From NCBI GenBank assembly GCA_049682815.1, contig JBAUII010000068.1, forward strand, positions 4,738 to 68,737: a stretch of 64,000 nt of DNA. The letters are read 5' to 3'. This stretch comes from Thermodesulfobacteriota bacterium (GTDB lineage Bacteria; Desulfobacterota_D; UBA1144; Nemesobacterales; CSP1-2). Positions 5,333 to 63,895 of this stretch are shown one piece after another. The notes beneath the pieces were generated by a model, which saw only the letters and a list, made by a program, of their open reading frames with translations, had not been told where the DNA came from and did not search any database. Both the position numbers and the translations under genes were made by a program. Each line of letters starts with the position of its first letter. The stretch's first letter is position 1.

Positions 5333-8300
5333 ATGAGGTGGGTCTCCGAAAATAAGGTTTACTTCCGGTTCGGAATTTCCGTACTTTGTCTAGTCATAAT
5401 CGTCTTCTTATCCTACCGGTCTACGTCCCAACAAATTAAGAATGAAGCTGCAGAAGATCAAACATATGAGGCACTTATAAAACTCCAACTTATATTCTCA
5501 TATCTAAAAGATGCCGAAAGCGGAGCACGGGGCTATGTTATCACTGGGATAGAATCCAATCTGGAGCAGTATTTTCATGCACAACAGAAAATTGAAAGGG
5601 AAATTAGTGAAACTCGCCGCGCCTTAGGCGATAGTCCGAGCTTACTTTTGAACTTAGTTCGCCTTGAATCTCTGATTTCGGAAAGACTAAATTTGATTAA
5701 CCAGACTATTGAGCTTAGGAAGAAATATGGATTTGAGGCAGCAAAGCAATTGTTAATGAAAGGTAGAGGAAATGAACTTTCGGATTATATCCGAGATGCG
5801 ATCAATCAGATCGAGAACGAAGGAATCACGTTGTTGAGAAGTCGAGTGGGTGAAGAAGAGGAAAGTAAAAGACTCATGATCTTGGTCTATGCGGTGGGAA
5901 TCCTTCTGGCTATTCTATTCGCCGGATTATCAATCACCACCATCAGACGCGACCTCACCAAGCACAGGCAGGCTGAGACAGAACACCAAACTCGTGAAAA
6001 GCATCAGCAAGCCCTGGTTGAACTAGGTCAAGTTGCACTAGGAGGTACCGACCTCTTAATGCTGATGAATGAGGCTGTATCGCAGGTTGCCAAAACCCTT
6101 GAGGTAGAATATGTCAAGATTTTGGAGCTCCAACCAGACAGCGACTCTTTGCTGCTTCGAGCGGGTGTGGGATGGAAAGATGGATTAGTAGGCCATGCGA
6201 CGATTGGTGTAGGTGTTGAATCGCAGGGGGGCTTTACTCTCGTTTCCAAAGAGCCAGTGATTATGGATGACATTATCAAGGAAAACAGATTTTCTGCGCC
6301 GCCACTGCTCAAAGATCATAATGTAGCGAGTGGCATAAGCACAACCATCCATGGTAAGGAAGGGCCCTATGGGGTATTGGGCGCTCACAGCGTAAGCAAA
6401 AGGACATACACGAAAGATGAAATTCACTTTCTTCAGTCTGTTGCAAATTTGATTTCTGAGGCGGTTGAGCGCAATCGCGTTCAAGATGAGCTAAGGATAA
6501 CAAATAGTATTATGGAATCGGTTAATAAGTCGTCTAAACTTGTTGGTGTTTTTGAAACTGCGATAGATAGGGTTTTGGAATTAACGGATATAAACATAGT
6601 CGGTATATATTTAATAGATGAAGCTACAAATGAGGCAGTACTTGAGGCTCACAGGGGATACAGTGGTGCATATATAGAGAGAGCGGGGAGGATACCATAT
6701 CCTAAGGGTGTGACGTGGAAGGTTATCGGCACAGGTGAGACCTATGTCGTCCAGGATGTGTCGATTGATCCATACGTTGGCGAAGCCGGTAGGGACGGTG
6801 GGTTTCAAAGCTTTCTGTCCGTGCCGATAAAAGTAGGAGAGAGAGCGATAGGTGCTATACATTTTCATAGCTTCAAGAGGAATTATTTTGGCAGAAGGGA
6901 GATAGACCTTCTCAATTCTATAGGGACACAGATTGCAATAGCGGTATCGAAGGCAAAACAGACTGAGGACTTGAAGTTAATCAATGAAGATCTACATACT
7001 CTAAATGTAATAACTACATCTGTTCATAAGTCTTTAAATCTTGAAGAGGTATTAAATATTGCTCTGGACAAGGTGGTGGAGATAACCGAGTTTGATATCA
7101 TCATGGTTTATCTTGTGGATGACGAAACTAACGAGGCGGTGCTAAAGGTACACAGGGGTCTTACAGAAGACTATATAGAGAGGGCAGGGAGGATAGCATA
7201 TCCAAAGGGTGTGACATGGAGGGTTATCAAGTCGGGCGAGCCTCACTATAGTGAAGATGTTCAAAAAGACCCTGACCTTGGTCCTGCCGGTAAGGCATTG
7301 GGTCACCATACTCACGTGTCAGTGCCTATGATACAGGAAAATAAAACAATAGGCGTAGTAAATTTTGCAAGTCGAAGGGTGTTAGGGCTTAGTTCGCGAG
7401 ATATAAATCTCCTCAATGCCATAGGGAATCAAATTGGGACATCAATGGTGCAGGCATCATTGTATGAAAGATCCCAGAAGCAATCAGAAGAGTTAAGAGG
7501 ACTATATAGGGATTTGGATGAGAGACGTAAAGACTTGGAAATAGTAAATACTATAACTCAAGCTGTGCATAAGTCCCTCGACTTGATGGAGATCTATGAG
7601 ATTGCTCTGGATTCGGTTGTTGATCTAGAAGATGTGGATATGGCAATGATTTATTTAGTGGACGAAGATAGAAAAGAGGCTATTCTCCAGGCCCAGAGAA
7701 ATCTTCCCCAGGATTACATAAATCGGGCGGGGAGGATACCATATCTCAAAGGAACTACCTGGCATGTTATTAACAAGGGGGAAGTAGTCCATATTGAAGA
7801 TATACAGAAAGATCCAACGGTCGGTCCTGCGGGTAGAGAGATAGGACATCATAGTGCATTAGGGATACCATTAAAAATAGAGGAGAAAGTTATAGGAGTG
7901 TTCTGGTTTCTGAGTTATAGGGAACATAAATTTGATAAGCAAGAGATAGATCTACTTTCTTCTATCGGAGATCAAATCGCTACAGCCATAGCAAAGGCAA
8001 AACTTTACCAAGACTCTAATAGGAGGCATGAGCAGATTGAGTTAGTGTATGAGCTTTCAAAGTCCCTAAATATGGATCTTTCCCTCGATGTAGTCCTAAG
8101 TAAGATAATCGAAGTTGCAAGGCAATTAGTAAAGGCTCGTTATTCCGCATTGGCAATATTTGATGAAAATAACAAAATAAGCCGATTTACCACTAACCTA
8201 ACGCCTGAAGAGATCAATTTAATTGGAACGTTACCTGAGGGGAAGGGTCTCTTGGGAGAGTTATTCAGAGACGGTAAATTATTGCGTTTGGACGATATCA

Positions 8301-48751: not shown

Positions 48752-49639
48752 ATGAATAATCTTGTAGATTCATTTCTCTCTTATCAGGCCGCGGTAAAAG
48801 GGCTGTCAAAAAACACACTGGAATCATATGGAAGGGATGTCTTAAAATTTGTAGATTACCTCGAGAAGAGAAATATATCCGGGATCGAGGACGTTAAGTA
48901 CAATAACATTCTGGAATATGTGACTACTCTCCAGGAAGAACGTATCAATATCAGGTCGGTTGCACGTAATCTGGTTTCTCTTAAGCAGTTCTTTAAATTT
49001 TTACTTCTTGAGAAAATCATAGTCGAAGATCCCAGCCTTCACGTAAAAACACCAAAAATGAAGAGAAGCATTCCAGGCTTCCTATCATTAGAAGATGTGG
49101 AAAGGCTCCTCTCCTCGCCCAATCCGGCGTCATATGAAGGGATAAGAGACAGAGCTATGCTGGAGATACTATACGCCTGCGGCATCAGGGCATCAGAACT
49201 TGTGAATCTTGAACTCAATAGTGTAAACTTTGAGCTGGGTTACCTGATTGTATATGGCAAGGGTTCAAAGGAAAGATTGGTGCCAACGGGTGAGAAGGCC
49301 AGAACTGCCTTGAAAGATTACCTGGCTCTATCGAGACCAAATATTCTTAAAACAAGAAGCTCACCTTGCCTGTTTGTTACCAGACGCGGGGAAGGAATGA
49401 CTCGTCAGGGGTTTTGGAAGATTCTGAAAAACTACGCAATCAAGTGTGGTATAAGTAAGAAGATAAGCCCTCATACTATAAGGCATTCTTTTGCTACACA
49501 TTTGCTGGAGAGAGGGGCGGACCTGAGAACAATCCAGATCATGCTCGGACATTCTGATATTTCGACGACACAGATTTATACACATATCGCCAAAGAGAGA
49601 CTAAAGGAGATACATAGAAAGTATCACCCTAGATCTTGA
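48752..49639 (+). CDS. xerD: Tyrosine site-specific recombinase XerD/XerC
   Basis: R..HxxR...Y catalytic residues (HTIRHSFATHLL ... TQIYTH). Immediately upstream of scpA-scpB, as in the conserved xerD-scpA-scpB arrangement. Confidence 0.8.
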   Translation: MNNLVDSFLSYQAAVKGLSKNTLESYGRDVLKFVDYLEKRNISGIEDVKYNNILEYVTTLQEERINIRSVARNLVSLKQFFKFLLLEKIIVEDPSLHVKTPKMKRSIPGFLSLEDVERLLSSPNPASYEGIRDRAMLEILYACGIRASELVNLELNSVNFELGYLIVYGKGSKERLVPTGEKARTALKDYLALSRPNILKTRSSPCLFVTRRGEGMTRQGFWKILKNYAIKCGISKKISPHTIRHSFATHLLERGADLRTIQIMLGHSDISTTQIYTHIAKERLKEIHRKYHPRS

Positions 49640-53116: not shown

Positions 53117-53359
53117 ATGAAGATCGTAAAAGCAACCGAAGCAAGAAACAATTTATACAGGTTGATTGACGAGGCTAGTGAATCCCATGAGCCGATTCAA
53201 ATATCCGGTAAGCGTTCGAATGCCGTTCTTATATCTGAAGAGGATTGGCGATCCATTCAAGAAACACTTAACTTGGTCTCTATACCAGGGATGAGGGAAT
53301 CAATAATTGAAGGACTTCAGACGCCGGTAGAGGAGTGCTCTGAGGAACCAGAGTGGTGA
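53117..53359 (+). CDS. Phd/YefM-family type II antitoxin
   Basis: The N-terminal (I/V)xAT(E/D)ARxNLxxL(I/L) motif, the approximately 80 aa size and an acidic C-terminus. Confidence 0.75.
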   Translation: MKIVKATEARNNLYRLIDEASESHEPIQISGKRSNAVLISEEDWRSIQETLNLVSIPGMRESIIEGLQTPVEECSEEPEW

Positions 53360-53605
53360 TTAGTCCCTTTAATTATCCAGGAATTAAAATACATTATTTT
53401 TCTCTATAAATTTAATAGCTGCTATTCATAAGGAATTGGAATACTTAAACCAAAAGAAAGAAGAGGACAGTACAGAGGAAATTGATCATAAAAGGAGAAA
53501 GATAATTCAACAAATAGGGGGCGAGAAGAACCAGGCCAAAAAATAACTCATTTATTCATGCCCGCCCCTGTCCTTCCTTCAATCAAGAGTTGCTCCCGAG
53601 GACCT

Positions 53606-53703
53606 TTGTCGGGAATCCGCCACCATTCTGTCATCCCCGAATGCTTTAATCGGGGATCCATAAAGACGTCATTGCGAGTGGCAACGCCACGAAGCAATCT
53701 CAT
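53606..53703. repeat. Family-B hairpin repeat (minus orientation, 53606-53650) immediately followed by a family-A repeat (53668-53703), at the edge of the AT-rich island
   Basis: Same sequence families as in 14148-15675 (TGTCATCCCCGAATGCTTTAATCGGGGATCCAT; GTCATTGCGAGTGGCAACGCCACGAAGCAATCTCA). Confidence 0.7.
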
Positions 53704-54298
53704 ATTCGCCCCCCCTACCCTCCATTCTCTTTCATCATTTGAATCTTGTCATGAGTCCTTTAAAATCCCGTCCCTTCACCCTGTCTGAGCCCTGAGCCTG
53801 TCGAACTATCGAATGGGGTCGAAGGATCGAACGCTGATCCGGGTTCTCCCCATACTCCGACAAGACCATATGAGGCCAAATGCGTGGAATGAGAAAAGGG
53901 CGTGACAAACAAATAAGCAAAGCCTGTGCACAACTTATTCAAATTACAACAATACAAGCCTGACCCGTAGCTCTAAGTAATTATGCAATATCTTATTATC
54001 TAAGTCTCCTCTATCCATTGGTTTGTTTTTAATTTGGTTCATTATTCCTAAAGATTTCATTGAGCGGATTATCATCCTAAGCTCTTCAGGCCAAGCTACA
54101 AAGAAATAGCCAAGCTATGATAACAGGGTGGCACTTATATTATCCTCGATGGTGGTCTGGCGAATATTGCATATTAAACGGCTTTTGTGTATAATCTTTA
54201 CCATATAAAACGAGTATGCACTATTTGTTTAAGACAAACTATAACACAAGAGATTTATTTATTAATATTCAAAAATATCTCTACAAGGGGGTTAATAA

Positions 54299-54677
54299 GA
54301 TGAGAATAAAATTCATATCTCCTAAGGCTGGATATGGGAAAGTAAAATGTACTGTGCACAAAAACGGTAAGTTAGGTTTTTCCCAAGCTGCCATTAAAAG
54401 ATTGAATGTAACCGACTCTAAACATTTCAAAATTGGTGTCAACGAAGAAGATAAGTCTGATGATAGCTTGTACCTTATGGTAACAGAGAATGAAGATAGA
54501 GATACATACAATGTAAATAAAGCCGGCAACTACTATTATCTGAATACTAGAAATTTGTTTGATGAACTAAACCTGAATTATAGAAACAAGCGTATTATAT
54601 ACGATATTGAAGAGATTGAATACGAGGGAACACGATTGTATAAATTAAATAAGAGGGAGTTGGACAGGAGTAAATAG
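54299..54677 (+). CDS. Hypothetical small protein (126 aa), first gene of the AT-rich island
   Basis: A strong RBS (AAGGGGG) lies 8 nt upstream of the ATG at 54299. There are no recognisable motifs. Composition is Lys/Asn/Tyr-rich. Confidence 0.5.
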
Positions 54678-54751: not shown

Positions 54752-55897
54752 TTGCATAAATTAACATTTTATCCGCTTGGAAATGCAGATACCTGCAAGA
54801 TTGATCTTTCAGATGGACAAAAGCTTCTCTTTGACTATGCCCACTTGCGAGATAACGAGAATGAAGAAGATCTTCGAGCAGATCTGGAAAAATTGCTCCG
54901 AGAGGATTTAGAAGCAGCAGGACGTGATTATTTCGATGTTGTGGCATTTACGCATGCTGACACAGACCATATAAAACGTGCTTCTGAATTTTTTTTCTTA
55001 GAGCATGCTAGCAAATATCAGGGTGATGAACGTATTAAAATCAAGGAACTTTGGGTTCCTGCCGCTATGATAATCGAAGAAGGATTAAAAGATGATGCTA
55101 GAGTGTTGCGGAGTGAAGCTAGATATCGCCTAAAGAATGGTTTTGGCATAAGAGTTTTTTCTCGACCTGAAAGGCTAAAAGATTGGTTTGAAGAACAAGG
55201 TATAGCAGTAGAGGAGCGGAGTGGATTAATAACCAACGCTGGTCAAACGGTTCCAGGATTTAACAAAGATAGGGACGGAGTTGAGTTTTTTGTTCATTCG
55301 CCTTTTGCACTACGAGATGGTGAAGAATTAGAGGATCGTAATGAGAGTTCTTTAATACTCCATATAACACTCATTTGCAAGGGGAGGGAAACAAAATTTT
55401 TACTCATAGGAGACTCAACGCATGACGCTTTAGCTAATGTAGTGAATATTACAAAATATCACCATAGAGAAGAACGCTTGGAATGGGATATTTACGATAT
55501 ACCCCACCATTGTAGCTACTTAGCACTTAGCGATGAAAAAAGAGCGAAAAAAACTATACCTGCTCCAGAAGTTAAGTGGCTATTAGATCAAGGCAGTAAG
55601 AAGGGTGTTTTAGTATCTAGCAGCAATCCAATTCCAAATGATTATGAAAATCCTCAGCCCCCACATAAGCAGGCAGCAAGTTGTTACGAAGATATTGAGC
55701 AGGGTATAGATGGTAGATTTAAGGTAACGATGGAGCATCCGACTGTATCTAAACCAGAACCATTAGTTATTACCATTGACGAGTGGGGAGCTAAACCAAA
55801 GTTAATTATTTCGGGTGGTGGATCTGCAACTACAAGTCGTCCAGCACCAAGGGCTGGTATTTTGAATGACGCTAAATTATCTTCCAGTACTGGGTGA
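54752..55897 (+). CDS. Metallo-beta-lactamase-fold hydrolase, ComEC/Rec2-like variant (HxDxDH), with ~200-aa C-terminal extension ending in a disordered Gly/Ser/Thr-rich tail (...SGGGSATTSRPAPRAGILNDAKLSSSTG)
   Basis: N-terminal beta strand (KLTFYPLGNADTCKI), THADTDH metal motif, later GDSTHD and HHCSY. Paralogous in these motifs to 58267-59082. Its 3' end overlaps the next gene by 32 nt. Confidence 0.6.
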   Translation: MHKLTFYPLGNADTCKIDLSDGQKLLFDYAHLRDNENEEDLRADLEKLLREDLEAAGRDYFDVVAFTHADTDHIKRASEFFFLEHASKYQGDERIKIKELWVPAAMIIEEGLKDDARVLRSEARYRLKNGFGIRVFSRPERLKDWFEEQGIAVEERSGLITNAGQTVPGFNKDRDGVEFFVHSPFALRDGEELEDRNESSLILHITLICKGRETKFLLIGDSTHDALANVVNITKYHHREERLEWDIYDIPHHCSYLALSDEKRAKKTIPAPEVKWLLDQGSKKGVLVSSSNPIPNDYENPQPPHKQAASCYEDIEQGIDGRFKVTMEHPTVSKPEPLVITIDEWGAKPKLIISGGGSATTSRPAPRAGILNDAKLSSSTG

Positions 55898-58115
55898 TGT
55901 AATATCCAAAAGTGATCTTAGAATTTCTAAAGCCAAAGAGATTTCAGATGCTTTAGAAAAATTACCTTATTTCTCACTTATAGAACTAAGAAGAATAACA
56001 AATCCATATGAGGCGGAAGCGGTAATATTTGATACCGAGGTGGAAATTGGACAAAAAACTATCCATGATATTCGTAGTACGGAACGAATTGCAGTAATTT
56101 TTACTCCAGAAGATAAATTCGTTCCTGAGGTTCTTGGTCTCCGCCCAGATTTTCCTTTAGTCCCTCATTTGAACTTACGTCAACAAGAAAGGCCCCGAAG
56201 CCTTTGTCTATTCAGTGAGAAGTACAGTGAAGTGAAATTTCACTGGACACCAAAATACTTTTTGGAGCGCATCCGTGAATGGTTAGCTCTTAGCGCTAAG
56301 GGTGAACTTCATGGAGATGATCAACCTCTAGAACCATTATTAATAGGATCACCTATAAAACTAATATTTCCATTCGACCTATTTGATGGAAAAAATATTG
56401 ACGAACTTGAATTGATAATAATACGACGTGCCGATTATGGAAGTAACGGATCGACTCTAATTGCTAATCGACAGAAAGACACTCCGACGATTAATAAAGA
56501 AGAGATACGATTTATTGCATTTCCAATCCAGGGCAGGCCTCAAGCGCACGGAATAATTTATAATCAGCCCGCGAATTTGTCAGAGCTTCACGACTTTCTA
56601 GATAGAACAAAGATTGATTTATTGAATGAACTACGAGGCTTTTTGAGAAAGTTTCAAACAAGTCACCCTAATAGTAACTTAATTAGAGCTCACCTTATAT
56701 TGATTATTAATCTCCCTAAGACAAGACATAGTAGTGGTAAACCCGAATCATCAGATATGTGGGCTTTCTGGTTGGAAGACACAATAGAAGAACTAGGAAG
56801 GAAAATTGGAATCTGGGAGAAAAAGGCAGGAGGGTTAGGAATCTTAATACCTCCTGACTATTTTAAAAAGGGTGAAGATGTGAAAATACACATACTCGAT
56901 CCTACACCCTACTTATCACGAGAACTTGCTTCTAAGTTAAATGGATTAAACCGAATAGATGACAGACAATTTTGTCTTGTTGGAGTTGGAGCACTTGGTT
57001 CACAAGTATTGAATAATCTCGTTCGAATGGGTATTGGAAACTGGACAATCATTGATGAAGATTGTTTGCTTCCCCATAATCTTGCTCGTCATGCACTTAC
57101 AAGTATTCATTTGGGATATTCCAAAGCAGAAATGCTTGCGGCAGAAGCGAATGGAATGATAAAAGGTGAGCCAGTCGCAAGCTCCATTGTAACTGATGTT
57201 TTAAATCCCCTAGATTCATTTGAGAATCTAAATTCTGCTTTCAAAGAGGCTCGAGTTATTATAGATGCGTCTGCATCAATCCCAGTTGCTCGACATTTGG
57301 TTCGAGATATCAAATCCAGAGCTCGCCGCCTGTCTATATTTCTCAACCCATCAGGAAGTGATGTCGTTATTCTTGCAGAAGATGAAAAAAGAAAACTTCC
57401 CCTTGATTGTTTGGAAATGCAATATTATCGTTACGTGATAACTAAGCCTAAATTAAAAACTCATTTTCAAAGAAAGGTTGGCTCAGTTCGTTATGCTCGC
57501 TCATGCAGAGACATAAGTAGCACTATTCCACAAGACCTAGTTTCATTACATTCTTCCATATGTTGCCGAGGGATCCTCAGTTTGATTAAGCAGAAGAAGT
57601 CACGTATTTCGATATGGAAGGCTGACATTATTGATTTGACAGTGACGAAATACAACGTTCCAATTTATGAGATTATACAGAGGAAGCTTGGCCCCTGGAC
57701 CTTATGTTTCGATCAGTTTTTGTTAAATAAAATATCAGAATCACGGGAAGAAAAATTGCCAAACGAAACCGGAGGTGTTCTGATAGGATCTTACGACATG
57801 CAAAGAAAGATTGTTTACGTTGTGGATACTATTTTGTCACCTCCTGACAGTTTTGAATATCCGACCGCATATATAAGAGGGTGCAAAGGATTAAAAAAAC
57901 GTGTTGATGAAATTCAAGAAACAACTATAGGAATGTTGAATTATGTAGGAGAGTGGCATTCCCACCCATGTGGATTTAATACTAAACTTAGTGACGATGA
58001 TAAAAAATTGTTTAGCTGGCTGAAAGAAAATATGAATATAGAAGGATTACCTGCATTGATGCTGATTGCAGGAGATAAAGCAAAATACTCGTGGTACCTT
58101 GAGAACACTAGTTAA
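55866..58115 (+). CDS. E2-like / E1 (ThiF) / JAB (JAMM) triple-fusion protein of a ubiquitin-like conjugation-type defence module
   Basis: N-terminal region with the UBC-like motif FPLVPHLN...RSLCLF (HPN..C-like). Central ThiF/E1 Rossmann fold (LVGVGALGSQV...IIDEDCLLPHNLARH). C-terminal JAMM metalloprotease motif (E..GEWHSHP...LSDDD). Confidence 0.7.
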   Translation: MTLNYLPVLGDVISKSDLRISKAKEISDALEKLPYFSLIELRRITNPYEAEAVIFDTEVEIGQKTIHDIRSTERIAVIFTPEDKFVPEVLGLRPDFPLVPHLNLRQQERPRSLCLFSEKYSEVKFHWTPKYFLERIREWLALSAKGELHGDDQPLEPLLIGSPIKLIFPFDLFDGKNIDELELIIIRRADYGSNGSTLIANRQKDTPTINKEEIRFIAFPIQGRPQAHGIIYNQPANLSELHDFLDRTKIDLLNELRGFLRKFQTSHPNSNLIRAHLILIINLPKTRHSSGKPESSDMWAFWLEDTIEELGRKIGIWEKKAGGLGILIPPDYFKKGEDVKIHILDPTPYLSRELASKLNGLNRIDDRQFCLVGVGALGSQVLNNLVRMGIGNWTIIDEDCLLPHNLARHALTSIHLGYSKAEMLAAEANGMIKGEPVASSIVTDVLNPLDSFENLNSAFKEARVIIDASASIPVARHLVRDIKSRARRLSIFLNPSGSDVVILAEDEKRKLPLDCLEMQYYRYVITKPKLKTHFQRKVGSVRYARSCRDISSTIPQDLVSLHSSICCRGILSLIKQKKSRISIWKADIIDLTVTKYNVPIYEIIQRKLGPWTLCFDQFLLNKISESREEKLPNETGGVLIGSYDMQRKIVYVVDTILSPPDSFEYPTAYIRGCKGLKKRVDEIQETTIGMLNYVGEWHSHPCGFNTKLSDDDKKLFSWLKENMNIEGLPALMLIAGDKAKYSWYLENTS

Positions 58116-58266: not shown

Positions 58267-59082
58267 GTGGAAGTGCATTTTATAGATGTAGGTTGTGGAA
58301 ACATGGTATTAATTGTTCTCCCAGAAGGATCGGTGTTAATTTACGATTGTAATATAACAAATGATAATACAGGGAGGGTTCTTTTATACTTATATAGAAT
58401 CATAGATAATAAATCTATAGATGTCTTTATTAATTCGCATAGAGATGCTGATCATATGAGAGGAATAAAAAAGCTACATGCTGCCAACACAATCAAAGCG
58501 ATTTGGGATACGGGAGTACCTGGAACCACTACTTATTCACCAGAATACAGGGAATATATGGATCTTCGTAGATCGCTTCCTTCAAAAGAGATTGAACCAA
58601 GGAAATACTGGACATATGGAGATGCCAAGCTAAGATGTATGAATTCAAAATGGGAGGACTTCTCTGAGCCAAATGAACAAAGTGTGGTATTGAAAATTGA
58701 GTATAAAGGGTCGTCGGTTATGCTCAGCGGAGATACGAACTATAGACCATGGAAAGAGAAACTTCTTACTTTTTATAAAAACGGTGACCTCGGGTCCGAC
58801 ATTTTGCTTGCTGCTCATCATGGTTCATTATCGTTCTTTGATGATCCATCAAATTCCCAAAATTATTACACCAACCATATTAGAAAAATAAATCCAGCAA
58901 TGACTCTGATATCTGTTGGGCCAAATAATTATGACCTTCCAAATAAGAAAGCCGTTGAGCTCTATGAGAAATTTTCACGAGGTTCCGAGAAAGGAAATAA
59001 AGTTTTCACAACAGAAAATAAAGGTACTATGAAGTTGGTAATGAAAGAAGCGGGAGGCTGGACATTATATAGCAATCAATAA
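58267..59082 (+). CDS. Metallo-beta-lactamase-fold hydrolase, ComEC/Rec2-like variant (HxDxDH, HHGS)
   Basis: VHFIDVGCGNMVLI beta-strand start, SHRDADHMRG, SGDT, AAHHGS. These are the hallmarks of the ComEC-type lactamase_B subfamily. Confidence 0.7.
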   Translation: MEVHFIDVGCGNMVLIVLPEGSVLIYDCNITNDNTGRVLLYLYRIIDNKSIDVFINSHRDADHMRGIKKLHAANTIKAIWDTGVPGTTTYSPEYREYMDLRRSLPSKEIEPRKYWTYGDAKLRCMNSKWEDFSEPNEQSVVLKIEYKGSSVMLSGDTNYRPWKEKLLTFYKNGDLGSDILLAAHHGSLSFFDDPSNSQNYYTNHIRKINPAMTLISVGPNNYDLPNKKAVELYEKFSRGSEKGNKVFTTENKGTMKLVMKEAGGWTLYSNQ

Positions 59083-59084
59083 AA

Positions 59085-59783
59085 ATGGACAAATTAAGTT
59101 ACTATGATGTATTATCAAACCTTCTTCCTGGGCTAGTGTTTGTTTGGGCCTTGGGAGTGCTTGGACCATTCACAAAAGGTACAATCCAGCTTCTTTTAAC
59201 TGGTAATACTATCGTCGATTCGATAATTTTTGTCGCACTAGGTTATGTTGCTGGCCATATTTTACAGTTTATATCGAGATATTCTATAGAACAAATTTTG
59301 AAGAGAATATTTTGGAAAGGAAATTTCTTTTCAGATATTTTTCTAGTATCGGCATTTAAGCAATGTCCCCAAGTTGAATTACGCCGTTATATAGCCATTG
59401 CTGAAAATAAGCTTGGCTTCTCCCGTGATGATTTGGGAGTTTTGTGTGATCCAGATGTTACATCAAATCAATCCAAGAAAGAAAAAGCGATTTCACTCTC
59501 AAGAGCAATTTATCGTGCTATTGATGCAAAGACAAGCGGCTTATCACGTGCACATAAAGCACATATTCAGAATACATTCTATTCATTATTCAGAAATCTT
59601 TCGGTAGTTTTTCTGATACTAGGACTGTCTGATTTGTTAGCAATAATCTTACATTTTGTACCACTAAGTAAAAAGATGACGTTTCTCATAGTAGTTAACT
59701 TTGCAATCTCGGTAATTTTTTTTATTAGAGCAAAACAACGTGGCGAATTATATGTAAGAAGTTTATTTTGGAGCTATATTTGA
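59085..59783 (+). CDS. Hypothetical integral membrane protein (about 4-5 TM helices)
   Basis: Hydrophobic helices at the N- and C-termini. Starts 3 nt after the preceding stop. Confidence 0.45.
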   Translation: MDKLSYYDVLSNLLPGLVFVWALGVLGPFTKGTIQLLLTGNTIVDSIIFVALGYVAGHILQFISRYSIEQILKRIFWKGNFFSDIFLVSAFKQCPQVELRRYIAIAENKLGFSRDDLGVLCDPDVTSNQSKKEKAISLSRAIYRAIDAKTSGLSRAHKAHIQNTFYSLFRNLSVVFLILGLSDLLAIILHFVPLSKKMTFLIVVNFAISVIFFIRAKQRGELYVRSLFWSYI

Positions 59784-59873: not shown

Positions 59874-60125
59874 ATGCCATCAAAAAGAGATAATTATCGA
59901 TATGAACTCCGCGATAAGGGTTCATTAGTTTATGTGGGGATTACAAATGATCCTGAAAAGAGGGAGCAGGAGCATAAGGGTGAAAGAAAAAGATTCACTA
60001 GTATGAACATTATTACGCCCCCTGTTACACAAGATTCAGCTGAGAGATGGGAAGAAAAAAGGCTGGAAACATACCGCACAAATCATCAAGGGAAAAACCC
60101 CCGATATAACAAGACGGGAATATAA
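59874..60125 (+). CDS. Small GIY-YIG-like domain protein
   Basis: YRYEL...LVYVGITNDPEKREQEH matches the GIY-(10-11)-YIG..R..E/H N-terminal motif. An RBS (GGAGG) lies upstream. Confidence 0.5.
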   Translation: MPSKRDNYRYELRDKGSLVYVGITNDPEKREQEHKGERKRFTSMNIITPPVTQDSAERWEEKRLETYRTNHQGKNPRYNKTGI

Positions 60126-60215: not shown

Positions 60216-63173
60216 CTAAGTCTTTGCCAATTCTTGATAAACCATCTCAAACATCTTCGCCACCAGCGCTGCTCTTATTGCCTTGTTGTCATTAACCTTC
60301 TTATAGAAGTCGAAGTGCTCGTCAATTATCTCTTGGAGCTTCTCATCAAAGAGATGGTCGAATGTTAGCCTTATTTTTTCCTTGCTATTTACCTTTGCGC
60401 TTGCCTTCAGCGATGGATTGCTCTCAATTCTTGATTGCAGTTGTTGAGCAATTACTTTATCTGATTCTGTAAAGTCAGTGCCATACTTGTCGTTTATTGA
60501 TTCAATTATCTTAGATAGGGCCTCTTTCTCTTTGCTCTTTAATGTTATCGCATCATATCTAGCTGGCCTAATCGAACCTCCGCGATCTCGGATTTCAATA
60601 CCCGTGCCCAGGTGCCCTATTCTGTAAGAATCCATATCAACCTGTTCCATGACCTCCACGGGCAGCCTATCATCGATTCGTGGCAACTTCCTTATCAGCA
60701 TCTTGCTGAAAACATATAGCTTTTCCAGATTAATATCTTTGAAGGGTATTATCTGAGATAAAAAGGCGTATAGGCGAATATAATTCCTTAGAAGTTTCTT
60801 GAACTCCTCCTGCTTCTCGGTTGGTAACTCCTCAAATCGTGAGACAACTTCATTAAGTATGGGATGCAGTTTATCTTGCTTCACTTTCTTATCGAAGAAG
60901 AGTTTTGCAAATCCATCCACATCTTCATGACTGAATACATACTGGTCCAGGAGCTTATGCTGAAAGTCATACAACTTGTTTGGATCAGTGCCTTCAGAAA
61001 GTATTGTTTCTCCATAATAATCCTCAAAGGCTTTTTCTATTTCATCCGCTTCATTAGCAAAATCCAGAATTAAGGGGTCTTCTTTATTGGAATAAATTCT
61101 GTTGACTCTGCTCAACGTTTGTACTGCTGCTACGTTTGCCAATTTCTTGTCCACATACATTGCATAAAGCAGGGGCTGGTCAAATCCTGTCTGGAATTTA
61201 TTTGCAACTATCAGAAATTTATTTCCCGCTCTTTTGAATTCATCCGCAGTCTGCTTTTCTGAGAAGCCATTCATGCCTGCTTCCGTAAAATCAAGGCCGC
61301 TGTCTGGATCATGAACTGTTCCTGAGAAGGCAACCAGGGTCTTGAACTTGTACCCCTTCTTCTTGATATATTTATCGCACGCAAGCTTAAACCTTACCGC
61401 GTGAAGCCTTGACCTCGTGACAATCATTGCCTTAGCTTGCCCGTTACCATTTTTGTCTGGAATCTTGTTTTTAACATGGTCATTGAAGTGCTCTATCATG
61501 ATTTCCACTTTCTTGTTGATTGAGTGCTCATGCAGGTCGACAAATGACCTTAGAAGAGCGGTTGCTTTTCTCTTGTCATAATTGGGGTCATCCTCAATTT
61601 TTTTAAGCAAATTGAAGTAGGTTTTGTAAGTTGTGTAGTTTTTTAACACGTCCCGAATAAAGGCTTCTTCAATTGCCTGCCTCATCGTGTAGAGGTGGAA
61701 TGGAAGGTATGAGCCGTCTTCTTGTTTTTCTCCAAATAATTCAAAAGTCTTTCCTTTGGGTGTTGCCGTGAATGCGAAATAGCTTACATTTTTCAACCTG
61801 CCTCTTGCATCTATTTCTTTCGTAATTTCATCTTCCCAGGTTACTTCCTCTATGTCTTTTTCCTCGGCTTCTTCAAGGCCTGAGACAGATAAAACCATTT
61901 TCAGGCTTTTGCTCGTCTCTCCTGATTGTGAGGAGTGAGCCTCATCAACAACAATGGCAAATTTCTTGCCAGGAAGCTTCGTTATATCATCAACGATGTA
62001 GGGAAATTTTTGGATTGTGGTTACAATAATTTTCTTGCCGCTCTCCAATGCTTCCTTTAGCTTCTTAGAGCCCTTGTCAATTTTTTCGACAACTCCGCTC
62101 ACCTGCGCAAACTGGTGGACTGTCCTTTGAAGCTGCCTGTCTAGTACAAGCCTGTCAGTAACAACTATTATTGAGTCAAATATTACCTTGTCTTTCTTGT
62201 CATGTAAGCTCGTTAGGTTATGACAAAGCCACGCTATCGTATTGCTTTTGCCGCTTCCCGCGCTGTGCTGGATAAGGTAGCTTTTGCCTAGATTATCTTT
62301 CTTGGCCGCTTCTACTAATTGCCTTACGGCATCTAGTTGATGGTATCTTGGGAAGATTAATTTCTGCTCTCCTGTTGGCTTTCCCTTTTCGTCCAGCACA
62401 TCTTCTATATGAAGAAAGTCCTTTATTATCTCTGAGAGTATTTCCTTAGTGAGGATTTCCTTCCACAAATATTCTGTTTTAAATCCTGCTGTATCAGGAT
62501 TTCCAGCGCCTCCATCCCGTCCCTTATTGAATGGCAGGAACTTTGTCTTTCCATTCTCCAGCTTGGTTGTCATGTAAACAAGGTCTTCATCTACGGCAAA
62601 GTAGACAAGATTCCTCTTAAAGGCAAAGTAAGGCTCTCTTGAGTCCCTGTCATACTTGAACTGCTTTATCGCATGCTCGACACTCTGCCCCGAAAGCTGG
62701 TCTTTAAGCTCAATTGTTATAATTGGAAGGCCATTAATAAAGAGCACCATATCAACAGATTTGTTGTTTCTCTCGCTGAAATAAACCTGCCGCATGACGC
62801 GGAACATATTTGCCTGAAAGAGTTTTTGGTAAGCTACGTTGAGCGTGGAAGCCGGCAAAGGATAGAATAAGTCGAAGTAGCAGCCGTAATCCCTTACACC
62901 CTTCCTCAAAACATCCAAGGTGCCTCTTTTCCCAATCTCATCTGCTAACCTCTTAAGGAACTTCTCTTGAACCTGGGAGCCATGCTGTTTCTTTAGCTTT
63001 CCCCACTCATCAGGCTGGGTTGCATAGATAAAAGCCAAAACCAGCTCAGTGTCCAAAGAAAGCTTTTTGTCATAATCGGTATTGTTTCTTGAAATGTATG
63101 CGTTCTTCCTTACAAGCCAGTCCTCTGTCTGCTCCTCCATCCTCATTTCTGAAGTTTTTAATTTAACAGCCAT
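60216..63173 (-). CDS. hsdR: Type I restriction enzyme R subunit (HsdR)
   Basis: N-terminal nuclease/PD-(D/E)xK region. SF2 helicase motifs: Walker A (QHSAGSGKS), DEAH box (VVDEAH), motif VI. About 985 aa. Confidence 0.85.
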   Translation of the reverse strand: MAVKLKTSEMRMEEQTEDWLVRKNAYISRNNTDYDKKLSLDTELVLAFIYATQPDEWGKLKKQHGSQVQEKFLKRLADEIGKRGTLDVLRKGVRDYGCYFDLFYPLPASTLNVAYQKLFQANMFRVMRQVYFSERNNKSVDMVLFINGLPIITIELKDQLSGQSVEHAIKQFKYDRDSREPYFAFKRNLVYFAVDEDLVYMTTKLENGKTKFLPFNKGRDGGAGNPDTAGFKTEYLWKEILTKEILSEIIKDFLHIEDVLDEKGKPTGEQKLIFPRYHQLDAVRQLVEAAKKDNLGKSYLIQHSAGSGKSNTIAWLCHNLTSLHDKKDKVIFDSIIVVTDRLVLDRQLQRTVHQFAQVSGVVEKIDKGSKKLKEALESGKKIIVTTIQKFPYIVDDITKLPGKKFAIVVDEAHSSQSGETSKSLKMVLSVSGLEEAEEKDIEEVTWEDEITKEIDARGRLKNVSYFAFTATPKGKTFELFGEKQEDGSYLPFHLYTMRQAIEEAFIRDVLKNYTTYKTYFNLLKKIEDDPNYDKRKATALLRSFVDLHEHSINKKVEIMIEHFNDHVKNKIPDKNGNGQAKAMIVTRSRLHAVRFKLACDKYIKKKGYKFKTLVAFSGTVHDPDSGLDFTEAGMNGFSEKQTADEFKRAGNKFLIVANKFQTGFDQPLLYAMYVDKKLANVAAVQTLSRVNRIYSNKEDPLILDFANEADEIEKAFEDYYGETILSEGTDPNKLYDFQHKLLDQYVFSHEDVDGFAKLFFDKKVKQDKLHPILNEVVSRFEELPTEKQEEFKKLLRNYIRLYAFLSQIIPFKDINLEKLYVFSKMLIRKLPRIDDRLPVEVMEQVDMDSYRIGHLGTGIEIRDRGGSIRPARYDAITLKSKEKEALSKIIESINDKYGTDFTESDKVIAQQLQSRIESNPSLKASAKVNSKEKIRLTFDHLFDEKLQEIIDEHFDFYKKVNDNKAIRAALVAKMFEMVYQELAKT

Positions 63174-63895
63174 TACACAACGCCCCGTACATCAATCTTT
63201 CCAGTCACCGCATGCGAAATCAAGGACGTTTTGTATTCATTCAAGAGGTCTATTTGTTTGTTTATTTTTTCCATTAGGTTGTCGATTCTTGAAGTTTCAG
63301 TTTTTAAATACTCTAAAATCTTTTCCTGCTCATCAACAGGCGGTAAAGGTAACAATACATTTTTCATATTGTCTTGATAGATTACCTCAATTGTTGTAGC
63401 GCAACTCATTATCAAAAGTTGCTCCCAGATTAATTTTGCTTGCTCGATTATCAGTGTTAAATACTCCTTAAGAATCCTTTCCTTATTAACTTGAATCCTT
63501 AGTAAACACGGATGTAAAATACCTTTTTCAGCATTCTCAGCGACAATGAACGTTTGGCCTATAGAACCTCTGGTTGTTATTAGAATGTCGCCAGGTTCTA
63601 CCTCAAAAGCTTTAAGTTCCGAATATTTTTCGTAAGAAACGTAATTCTCACCATGAGTAATATCCTTAAGAAGTACAGTTTCTTGATTGTATACTTTAAC
63701 ATCACCCAATTCCATATCGCTGGCTTTTAACTGGCTACCGAATGGACCTGTTTTGATTGCACCCTTTTTATTATCAACGCAATATTTAAGTTTCTTAAAA
63801 TCCCAATGAAACGGAATTGTTTCAATTAGTTCACTTCCGGAATCCTTCATCTTTACATCAGGGTCTAAACCCTTCGTCACAACATGGCTTATCAA
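63173..63895 (-). CDS. hsdS: Type I restriction-modification specificity subunit (HsdS), one target-recognition domain plus conserved coiled-coil; the gene probably continues beyond the window end
   Basis: HsdS-like TRD and a conserved central/C-terminal helix (LPPVDEQEKI...). The sequence at 63940-64000 repeats the conserved-helix-coding motif seen at 63240-63300, which suggests a second half. Confidence 0.7.
   Translation of the reverse strand: MISHVVTKGLDPDVKMKDSGSELIETIPFHWDFKKLKYCVDNKKGAIKTGPFGSQLKASDMELGDVKVYNQETVLLKDITHGENYVSYEKYSELKAFEVEPGDILITTRGSIGQTFIVAENAEKGILHPCLLRIQVNKERILKEYLTLIIEQAKLIWEQLLIMSCATTIEVIYQDNMKNVLLPLPPVDEQEKILEYLKTETSRIDNLMEKINKQIDLLNEYKTSLISHAVTGKIDVRGVV

Follow-up and report, generated by a model that had tools for sequence, protein, structure and literature searches.

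A 6A-MBL anti-phage locus in a Thermodesulfobacteriota genome and the conserved glycine tail of its MBL-fold protein

The fusion of E2, E1 and JAB modules in one protein was described in 2006 as type 6a, a system of two genes in which the triple-module (E2-E1-JAB) protein is encoded next to a metallo-β-lactamase (MBL) fold protein, and row 6b of the same table is an operon with a nucleotidyltransferase that was later named type II CBASS (an anti-phage signaling system based on cyclic oligonucleotides) (Iyer, Burroughs and Aravind, 2006, Table 1; PMC1779556). The two types are sister systems. Type 6a, now cited as 6A-MBL, is listed among the known jumbo-phage defense systems of Pseudomonas aeruginosa (bioRxiv 2025.09.30.679545), and a further paper counts it, with credit to van den Berg et al. 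(2024), as a defense that contains ubiquitin-related elements and has been confirmed by experiment (PMC13276650). The chemistry of the sister system has been described in detail. In one study, a conserved C-terminal glycine or alanine is found only in those cGAS/DncV-like nucleotidyltransferases (CD-NTases) whose operons also encode Cap2 and Cap3; Cap2 forms a thioester with the CD-NTase glycine, and the cut by Cap3 falls precisely at the C-terminus of cGAS (PMC10097602). Cryo-electron microscopy of Cap2 showed the E1 site occupied by the adenylated tail of cGAS, and the catalytic cysteines of Enterobacter cloacae Cap2 were assigned to C109 in the E2 hairpin and C548 in the crossover loop (bioRxiv 2022.03.31.486616). 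Here we describe a locus of the 6A-MBL type in a stretch of 64,000 nucleotides (the window) from contig JBAUII010000068.1 of a Thermodesulfobacteriota metagenome-assembled genome (MAG; GCA_049682815.1), and consider how its MBL-fold protein may be modified by the conjugation enzyme encoded beside it.

The locus consists of two overlapping genes on the forward strand, cap2_3 and the MBL gene directly upstream of it. The cap2_3 open reading frame (ORF), at 55866..58115, starts with ATG and encodes 749 residues; its N-terminal methionine lines up with that of 24 full-length homologues, which supports the start codon. The MBL gene starts with TTG, preceded at 8 nucleotides by a GGAGG ribosome-binding site, and its 3' end runs 32 nucleotides into cap2_3. 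The features of the pair are as follows.

54752..55897, forward strand: MBL-fold enzyme of the 6A-MBL system, 381 residues (NF058524)
55847..55858, forward strand: codons of the MBL tail motif P366-R367-A368-G369, with G369 as the proposed adenylation and conjugation site
55859..55894, forward strand: unconserved extension of 12 residues (ILNDAKLSSSTG) after G369, a proposed pro-peptide cut by the JAB domain
55866..56390, forward strand: E2-like domain of Cap2_3, about residues 1-175 (Pfam Prok-E2_A), with H101 in PHLN and the Cys114 codon at 56205..56207
56391..56930, forward strand: linker domain, about residues 176-355, similar to the linker of Cap2 and the N-terminal domain of Atg7 (from NF058523 and Foldseek coverage; boundaries approximate)
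56931..57665, forward strand: E1 (ThiF-type adenylation) domain, about residues 356-600 (Pfam ThiF), with the crossover-loop Cys547 codon at 57504..57506
57693..58115, forward strand: JAB/JAMM metallopeptidase domain, about residues 610-749, with E634 and H698-S-H700...S709-x-x-D712 (57957..58001)

Both products exceed the cutoffs of the dedicated NCBIfam equivalog models about twofold. Cap2_3 scores 659.5 bits (cutoff 320) against NF058523, "anti-phage 6A-MBL system cap2_3 protein", over its residues 64-734 and positions 3-665 of the model's 665, and the product of 54752..55897 scores 405.7 bits (cutoff 220) against NF058524, "anti-phage 6A-MBL system MBL-fold protein". The protein also agrees with row 6a of Iyer et al. 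(2006), its three Pfam domains standing in the E2-E1-JAB order, each above its threshold, beside the NF058524 gene. The residues for all four activities (E2, E1, JAMM and the MBL metal site) are present in the window proteins and are invariant across the family, or at least 90% conserved in the case of R408, D70 and D221. Membership of 54752..55897 and 55866..58115 in the known 6A-MBL system is therefore close to certain, and the locus is an ordinary, intact member of a catalogued defense system. An earlier reading of the letters and ORF translations, made without database searches (below, the sequence-only reading), had recognized the fusion protein and overlooked the MBL gene; the novelty that it implied for the fusion does not hold, the architecture having been described in 2006 (PMC1779556) and being cited as 6A-MBL and modelled in NCBIfam. 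The explanation favored here, which joins 6A-MBL membership to a Cap2/Cap3-like mechanism acting on the MBL-fold protein, is given a probability of about 0.8.

The same reading had assigned E2-like, E1 (ThiF) and JAB/JAMM domains to the single chain of 749 residues, and this is borne out by Pfam: Prok-E2_A at residues 52-171 (80.3 bits, gathering cutoff 25), ThiF at residues 357-482 (57.3 bits, cutoff 28.1) and Prok-JAB at residues 619-737 (36.6 bits, cutoff 25), the last also matched by the JAB model of PADLOC (E = 1.8e-24; PADLOC matches are given throughout without curated cutoffs). The motifs it quoted were all located, namely PHLN at 100-103, followed after 8 residues by SLCLF at 112-116, VGVGALG at 372-378, NLARH at 405-409, HSH at 698-700 and SDDD at 709-712; the E2 cysteine that it placed around residue 113 is present, at position 114. 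In the alignment of the window protein with the 24 homologues (48-58% identical), the invariant columns include H101 and C114 in the E2 domain, G373, G375 and G378 of the Rossmann motif (G373-x-G375-x-x-G378), D397, N405, K420, D467 and C547 in the E1 domain, where R408 is conserved in at least 90%, and E634, H698/S699/H700, S709 and D712 in the JAMM domain. The invariant C114 and C547 correspond to C109 and C548 of Cap2.

Structural comparison points to the same relative. An AlphaFold2 model computed from this alignment (mean predicted local distance difference test (pLDDT) 80.2, predicted TM-score (pTM) 0.70) best matches, among solved structures searched with Foldseek, full-length E. cloacae Cap2 in the Cap2-CdnD02 complex (7to3_A, E = 1.4e-24, 637 columns), with Atg7 (4gsk, 3vh1) next in rank. 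The E1 domain alone superposes on 7tsx_B with a TM-score of 0.87 and a root-mean-square deviation of 2.8 Å, and the full-length alignment to 7to3_A covers the E2 region and the linker. In a sequence-profile search of solved structures, Cap2 (7tsq, 7tsx, 7to3) was again best for the E1 part, at E about 1e-14, and the JAB part matched 9ild, named "Peptidase" (E = 3.3e-5); that search matched the E1 and JAB parts only, and the E2 domain was not detected by it. The E2 assignment is therefore based on the Pfam match and on the full-length Foldseek alignment to Cap2. The structure check suggested with the earlier reading thus leaves its E2-like and JAMM folds unrefuted.

The gene pair is strictly conserved. 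A protein database search with Cap2_3 returned at least 1295 homologues at E <= 1e-10, and the best 120 of these are about 730-815 residues long with all three Pfam domains, except one truncated entry of 687 residues with no recorded JAB match. A sequence identical to the window protein is among the NCBI entries, from a Thermodesulfobacteriota MAG; relatives were found in at least 558 species genomes from many phyla, one genome per species being scanned. Of a sample of 80 fetched cap2_3 loci (L001-L080), 77 have, by tblastn, a same-strand MBL gene directly upstream, and clustering of the ORFs showed the MBL gene to be the only one conserved with cap2_3. Two of the other three loci lie on contigs that break off at the 5' end of cap2_3. 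In the third (L074), the cap2_3 match at 6001-7509 comprises query residues 244-748 only, and neither an MBL gene nor an E2-domain match was detected in ample upstream sequence; this could be a truncated or rearranged copy.

The kinship with Cap2 raises the question of whether the protein is instead a Cap2-Cap3 fusion of a degenerate or split type II CBASS, serving a CD-NTase and an effector encoded elsewhere. PADLOC labels cap2_3 as CBASS "E1-E2" (E = 4e-32) and "JAB" (E = 2e-24), Cap2 is the closest solved structure, and a patatin, a classic type of CBASS effector, follows cap2_3 in 20 or more of the related loci. The label comes from PADLOC v2 (2023), which has no 6A-MBL model, and was rejected because no cyclase accompanies the gene. 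Every ORF of at least 250 residues in 47.4-64 kb was assigned to another family and none is a CD-NTase, in agreement with the earlier reading, and no nucleotidyltransferase cluster was found among the ORFs of the 80 related loci, where the MBL is the only conserved partner. Moreover, the NCBIfam Cap3 model (NF050170) gives cap2_3 only 34.8 bits, against a cutoff of 200, and type 6a (MBL) was already separated from type 6b (nucleotidyltransferase) in the table of 2006 (PMC1779556). With no cyclase among those ORFs here or in the related loci and the Cap3 model far under its cutoff, a split CBASS is essentially excluded. The sequence-only reading had named, as an outcome that would overturn it, an architecture already catalogued as a Cap2-Cap3 fusion inside CBASS operons with a CD-NTase nearby; catalogued it is, as a system of its own, and the CBASS and cyclase part of that outcome was not found.

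The MBL-fold protein is the candidate substrate of this enzyme. Its metal-binding residues (H68-x-D70-x-D72-H73, H182, D221 and H252/H253) are conserved among 28 homologues, and its AlphaFold2 model (pLDDT 86.6, pTM 0.86) is closest to the β-lactamase-like nuclease domain of ComEC (9ic4, E = 2.2e-14), in agreement with the sequence profile (9ic4 at E = 2.2e-5). The next structural matches, the phosphocholine esterase Pce and NAPE-PLD, are phosphodiesterases too. The protein is probably a ComEC-like phosphodiesterase with nuclease activity.

The feature that suggests modification is the C-terminal tail of this protein, which in the window reads ...SRPAPRAG followed by ILNDAKLSSSTG. G369 is invariant, and P366 and R367 at least 90% conserved, among the 28 homologues, and most MBL homologues in the databases end at about residue 369 (97% query coverage). 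Among the MBL proteins of the 77 loci, the pattern x-R/K-(A/V/M)-G stands near the end in 73, as PRAG in 53 of them, and with two further RRAG tails the motif is present in 75. The motif glycine is the exact C-terminus in 43 of the 77, and in 32 (30 pattern-matching proteins and the two with RRAG) it is followed by an extension of 1-19 unconserved residues. The extension of 12 residues in the window arises because the MBL reading frame continues 32 nucleotides into cap2_3. Residues 353-381 are disordered in the model (pLDDT < 50). An invariant glycine that is often terminal, with unconserved residues beyond it, is the signature of a processed conjugation terminus, and by analogy with Cap3 the JAB domain would remove the residues after G369.

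Two observations were made on the tail and its coding sequence. A divergent member of the family (L082) encodes at 1599-2753 on the forward strand an MBL of the 6A-MBL type (hidden Markov model (HMM) E = 9e-63) upstream of a Cap2_3 of 786 residues, with a C-terminus of ...TPQTYGS in place of PRAG; a transmembrane (TM) protein gene, a gene for a second MBL-fold protein (MBL2) and an SLFN/AlbA_2 gene lie downstream, and a SAVED-domain gene lies nearby. Possibly it represents a subtype in which other rules apply to the tail. In the window, a terminator-like element was flagged at 55841..55857 on the forward strand, a short hairpin rich in GC with a T-run after it (CCAGCACCAAGGGCTGG TATTTTGAAT). 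It sits exactly over the PRAG codons, 9 nucleotides 5' of the cap2_3 ATG, and may influence translational coupling or be a coincidence.

Based on these features, a mechanism can be proposed in which the MBL-fold phosphodiesterase would take the role of the ubiquitin-like substrate, offering a flexible C-terminal tail with a P-R-A-G end. The JAB domain of Cap2_3 would trim the residues after the glycine where they are present (12 here) and so expose Gly369, whose carboxylate would be adenylated with ATP by the ThiF-type E1 domain. The acyl group would then move to the crossover-loop Cys547, and from there to Cys114 of the E2 domain, before its final ligation to some target, either a protein lysine or another amine. 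Conjugation might prime, localize or activate the MBL enzyme during phage infection, and the same JAB domain could reverse it. By analogy with type II CBASS we infer each chemical step, the nuclease activity and the existence of a conjugation target, and conjugation of the MBL by a Cap2/Cap3-like mechanism is, taken by itself, considered reasonably probable. The presence of the MBL partner gene makes sense of a conjugation enzyme that stands without a ubiquitin-like protein or a cyclase. No ubiquitin-like gene was recognized by Pfam, PADLOC or NCBIfam in the flanking small ORFs (54216..54677, 53558..53788 and 59874..60125), and ORF clustering showed no conserved small gene beside the pair in the 80 related loci. 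Phage resistance is predicted for the window locus by analogy, from papers citing van den Berg et al. (2024).

Several points weigh against this explanation. In the accessible part of the literature, conjugation of the MBL is not demonstrated, and one preprint mentions it in passing. The function of the locus is deduced from sequence and from structural models. The substrate of the MBL itself is ambiguous in the model comparisons, a phosphocholine esterase and NAPE-PLD being among its structural neighbors, and the frequency of accessory genes means that the MBL may not be the final effector. The extension in the window is longer than most, and since it arises from the overlap with the start of cap2_3, it could be an assembly or indel artefact of the MAG instead of a true pro-peptide. 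The divergent L082 lacks the PRAG tail. As to phage defense by the system, the result that van den Berg and colleagues are said to have obtained in 2024 has reached us only through papers that cite it.

Some of these points could be read to mean that the MBL is only a downstream effector nuclease, that Cap2_3 modifies another molecule (a lipid, or a protein of the phage or the host) with another carboxylate donor, and that the PRAG tail is a docking or autoinhibitory peptide. Such a reading would suit the lack of a ubiquitin-like fold, the lack of demonstrated MBL conjugation in the literature that could be consulted and the one divergent member without the tail; the conserved arginine and proline are also unneeded for the chemistry of adenylation. 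However, the glycine is invariant, is the exact C-terminus in 43 of 77 proteins and has nothing conserved beyond it, as in a processed terminus and not a docking peptide. CD-NTases, likewise devoid of a ubiquitin fold, undergo exactly this conjugation through the closest homologue, and the operon has no further small gene that is conserved. A purely effector role for the MBL is therefore judged improbable, and conjugation of the MBL through Gly369 is retained as the working explanation.

A further question is whether the pair is the whole functional unit, as two genes follow it in the window. Accessory families were obtained by clustering all ORFs of the 80 loci and the window. The genes concerned, with examples from the locus sample, are as follows.

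58267..59082, forward strand: MBL2, a second ComEC-like MBL-fold protein of 271 residues, a possible accessory module (Pfam Lactamase_B, 37.8 bits)
59085..59783, forward strand: TM protein of 232 residues, F252 family, with hydrophobic segments at both ends
L001, 8321-9463: patatin
L004, 3687-4433: TM protein
L002, 8855-9919: PDC-M48B protein

MBL2 belongs to the MBL2 family of the loci (E = 9e-86); its PADLOC match to PDC-M48B is weak (E = 8.3e-12), and its NCBIfam ComEC/Rec2 match is under the cutoff. The product of 59085..59783 matches an HMM of the F252 family built from 35 locus proteins (E = 5e-12), the PADLOC model of Csx27 (E = 4.8e-12) and that of PDC-M48A (E = 1.8e-5, over the N-terminal 75 residues only), and scores 29.5 bits, against a cutoff of 65, with the NCBIfam Csx27 model. 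From its hydrophobic segments (residues 8-27, 34-64 and 167-218), it is read as having about four TM helices. Among the 80 loci, F252 proteins (about 250 residues, four TM helices) occur in 36 by HMM and adjoin the pair on the same strand in 29; patatin-like phospholipases (F414; Pfam Patatin, 58.9 bits) occur in 25, MBL2 homologues near the pair in about 20, and clear PDC-M48B proteins (the F344 MBL family; 538 bits on the PADLOC model for the L002 gene) in 6.

It is possible that the functional unit comprises MBL, Cap2_3, MBL2 and the TM protein here, and in general the pair with an exchangeable membrane-disrupting effector, TM protein or patatin; equally tentative is the corollary that the conjugated MBL works upstream, as sensor or as source of a signal, and that killing of the cell falls to the TM protein or patatin. 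This is the most interesting of the alternatives. A same-strand accessory gene lies within 350 nucleotides of the pair in 54 of the 80 loci; accessory genes often overlap the pair by 4 or 8 nucleotides, and offsets of -3 and -7 are common between the cap2_3 stop and their starts, suggesting coupled translation. The TM family and the patatin never occur together, where about 11 co-occurrences would be expected (hypergeometric P = 6e-9, a value that overstates the independence of the loci because they are phylogenetically related). In the window, MBL2 follows cap2_3 at 152 nucleotides and the TM gene follows MBL2 at 2. On the other hand, the 152-nucleotide gap is AT-rich, about a quarter of the loci have no accessory gene, and the system is described as two genes in the literature (PMC1779556) and has only two NCBIfam models. 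A pair of MBL2 and TM genes is also found where Cap2_3 is absent (L081 and L084, and the MBL2 family also in L083), resembling PDC-M48, and the adjacency may be mere defense-island clustering. The evidence thus fits an accessory module and a habitual island neighbor alike. That the core pair is usually part of a larger modular operon, with the conjugated MBL acting upstream of an exchangeable membrane effector (a four-TM Csx27-like protein, often with a second ComEC-like MBL, or a patatin), is held to be unlikely, slightly more so than the larger unit as such. If true, 6A-MBL would be a sensor-effector system in the manner of CBASS, with an MBL hydrolase at its base where CBASS has a nucleotide cyclase. 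Given the Atg7/Atg3-like enzymes, one possibility by analogy is that the MBL would become linked to the membrane, or else to the TM protein itself.

The 6A-MBL pair, which is no CBASS, lies in a small defense island. Upstream of about 52 kb, the genes are housekeeping ones (MetK, AhcY, a XerC/D-like recombinase, an M50 peptidase, ScpA, ScpB and YbeY). Downstream, as the sequence-only reading had stated, a type I restriction-modification locus follows.

60216..63173, reverse strand: HsdR, type I restriction-modification
63173..63895, reverse strand: HsdS, type I restriction-modification

The AT-rich island reported by the same reading is real and only mild, the GC content falling to 0.34-0.39 across 54-60 kb, against about 0.42-0.44 in most of the window. 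The XerC/D-like recombinase gene at 48752..49639 was considered as the island integrase and rejected, lying among the housekeeping genes (AhcY, M50 peptidase, ScpA/B) some 3-4 kb before the island. A tRNA scan found no tRNA in the window as an integration site, and a scan for promoters and terminators was uninformative (promoter-like sites, 19 found and 22.8 expected; terminator-like sites, 6 found and 3.3 expected). At the island's edge, a Phd/YefM-family antitoxin gene (53117..53359, forward strand; Pfam 67.4 bits) is followed after 200 nucleotides by an ORF of 76 residues with no family match (53558..53788, forward strand), and the two form a possible toxin-antitoxin pair. Directly upstream of the MBL gene lies an AT-rich ORF of 153 residues (54216..54677, forward strand), for which Pfam, PADLOC and NCBIfam gave no match and which the 80 related loci do not share. 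An ORF of 83 residues (59874..60125, forward strand), situated between the TM gene and HsdR, matches no more than the first half of a GIY-YIG nuclease domain (25 bits, profile positions 5-39 of 78); it is probably what remains of a gene.

This architecture was published in 2006 and is represented in the NCBI models as a named anti-phage system, of which the window holds one more member. The mechanism of 6A-MBL appears largely unpublished, and the P-R-A-G tail with its variable extensions offers a concrete hypothesis, that Gly369 is the conjugation site and JAB the processing enzyme. The adjacency of patatin or TM genes, which never co-occur, hints at an unrecognized CBASS-like effector layer. 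The novelty of both the tail motif and the accessory pattern is subject to the content of van den Berg et al. (2024).

Compared with 6A-MBL as described, the locus agrees in its two genes, in their order and orientation and in the E2-E1-JAB order within one chain, and nothing essential differs. Its particulars are its origin in a Thermodesulfobacteriota MAG, with the nearest relatives 58% (Cap2_3) and 67-69% (MBL) identical, the longer than usual MBL extension of 12 residues, and the MBL2 and TM module after the pair. It resembles type II CBASS (E. cloacae Cap2-CdnD02; PDB 7TO3, 7TQD and 7TSX), which supplies the closest solved structure, in its Atg7-like E1, crossover-loop cysteine and E2 hairpin cysteine, and, on the side proposed for 6A-MBL, in a substrate that would be an enzyme with a flexible tail ending in glycine and not a β-grasp protein, with a JAB domain that would cleave at that terminus. 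It differs from type II CBASS in that Cap3 is fused to Cap2 in the window protein, which falls far short of the Cap3 model, that the proposed substrate is an MBL-fold hydrolase and not a nucleotidyltransferase, and that no cyclic-nucleotide synthase is present. The contrast that the sequence-only reading drew with the separate Cap2 and Cap3 of type II CBASS and with Bil stands. Bil (type 6c/6e-like) and Bub share E1, E2 and JAB-type chemistry in phage-defense or defense-like contexts; unlike the window locus, they encode a separate β-grasp ubiquitin-like protein and separate E1 and E2 proteins, and Bub uses a serine in place of the cysteine. The downstream genes at 58267..59082 and 59085..59783, finally, weakly resemble PDC-M48, a PADLOC candidate system of a TM protein (A) and an MBL-fold protein (B), and Csx27.

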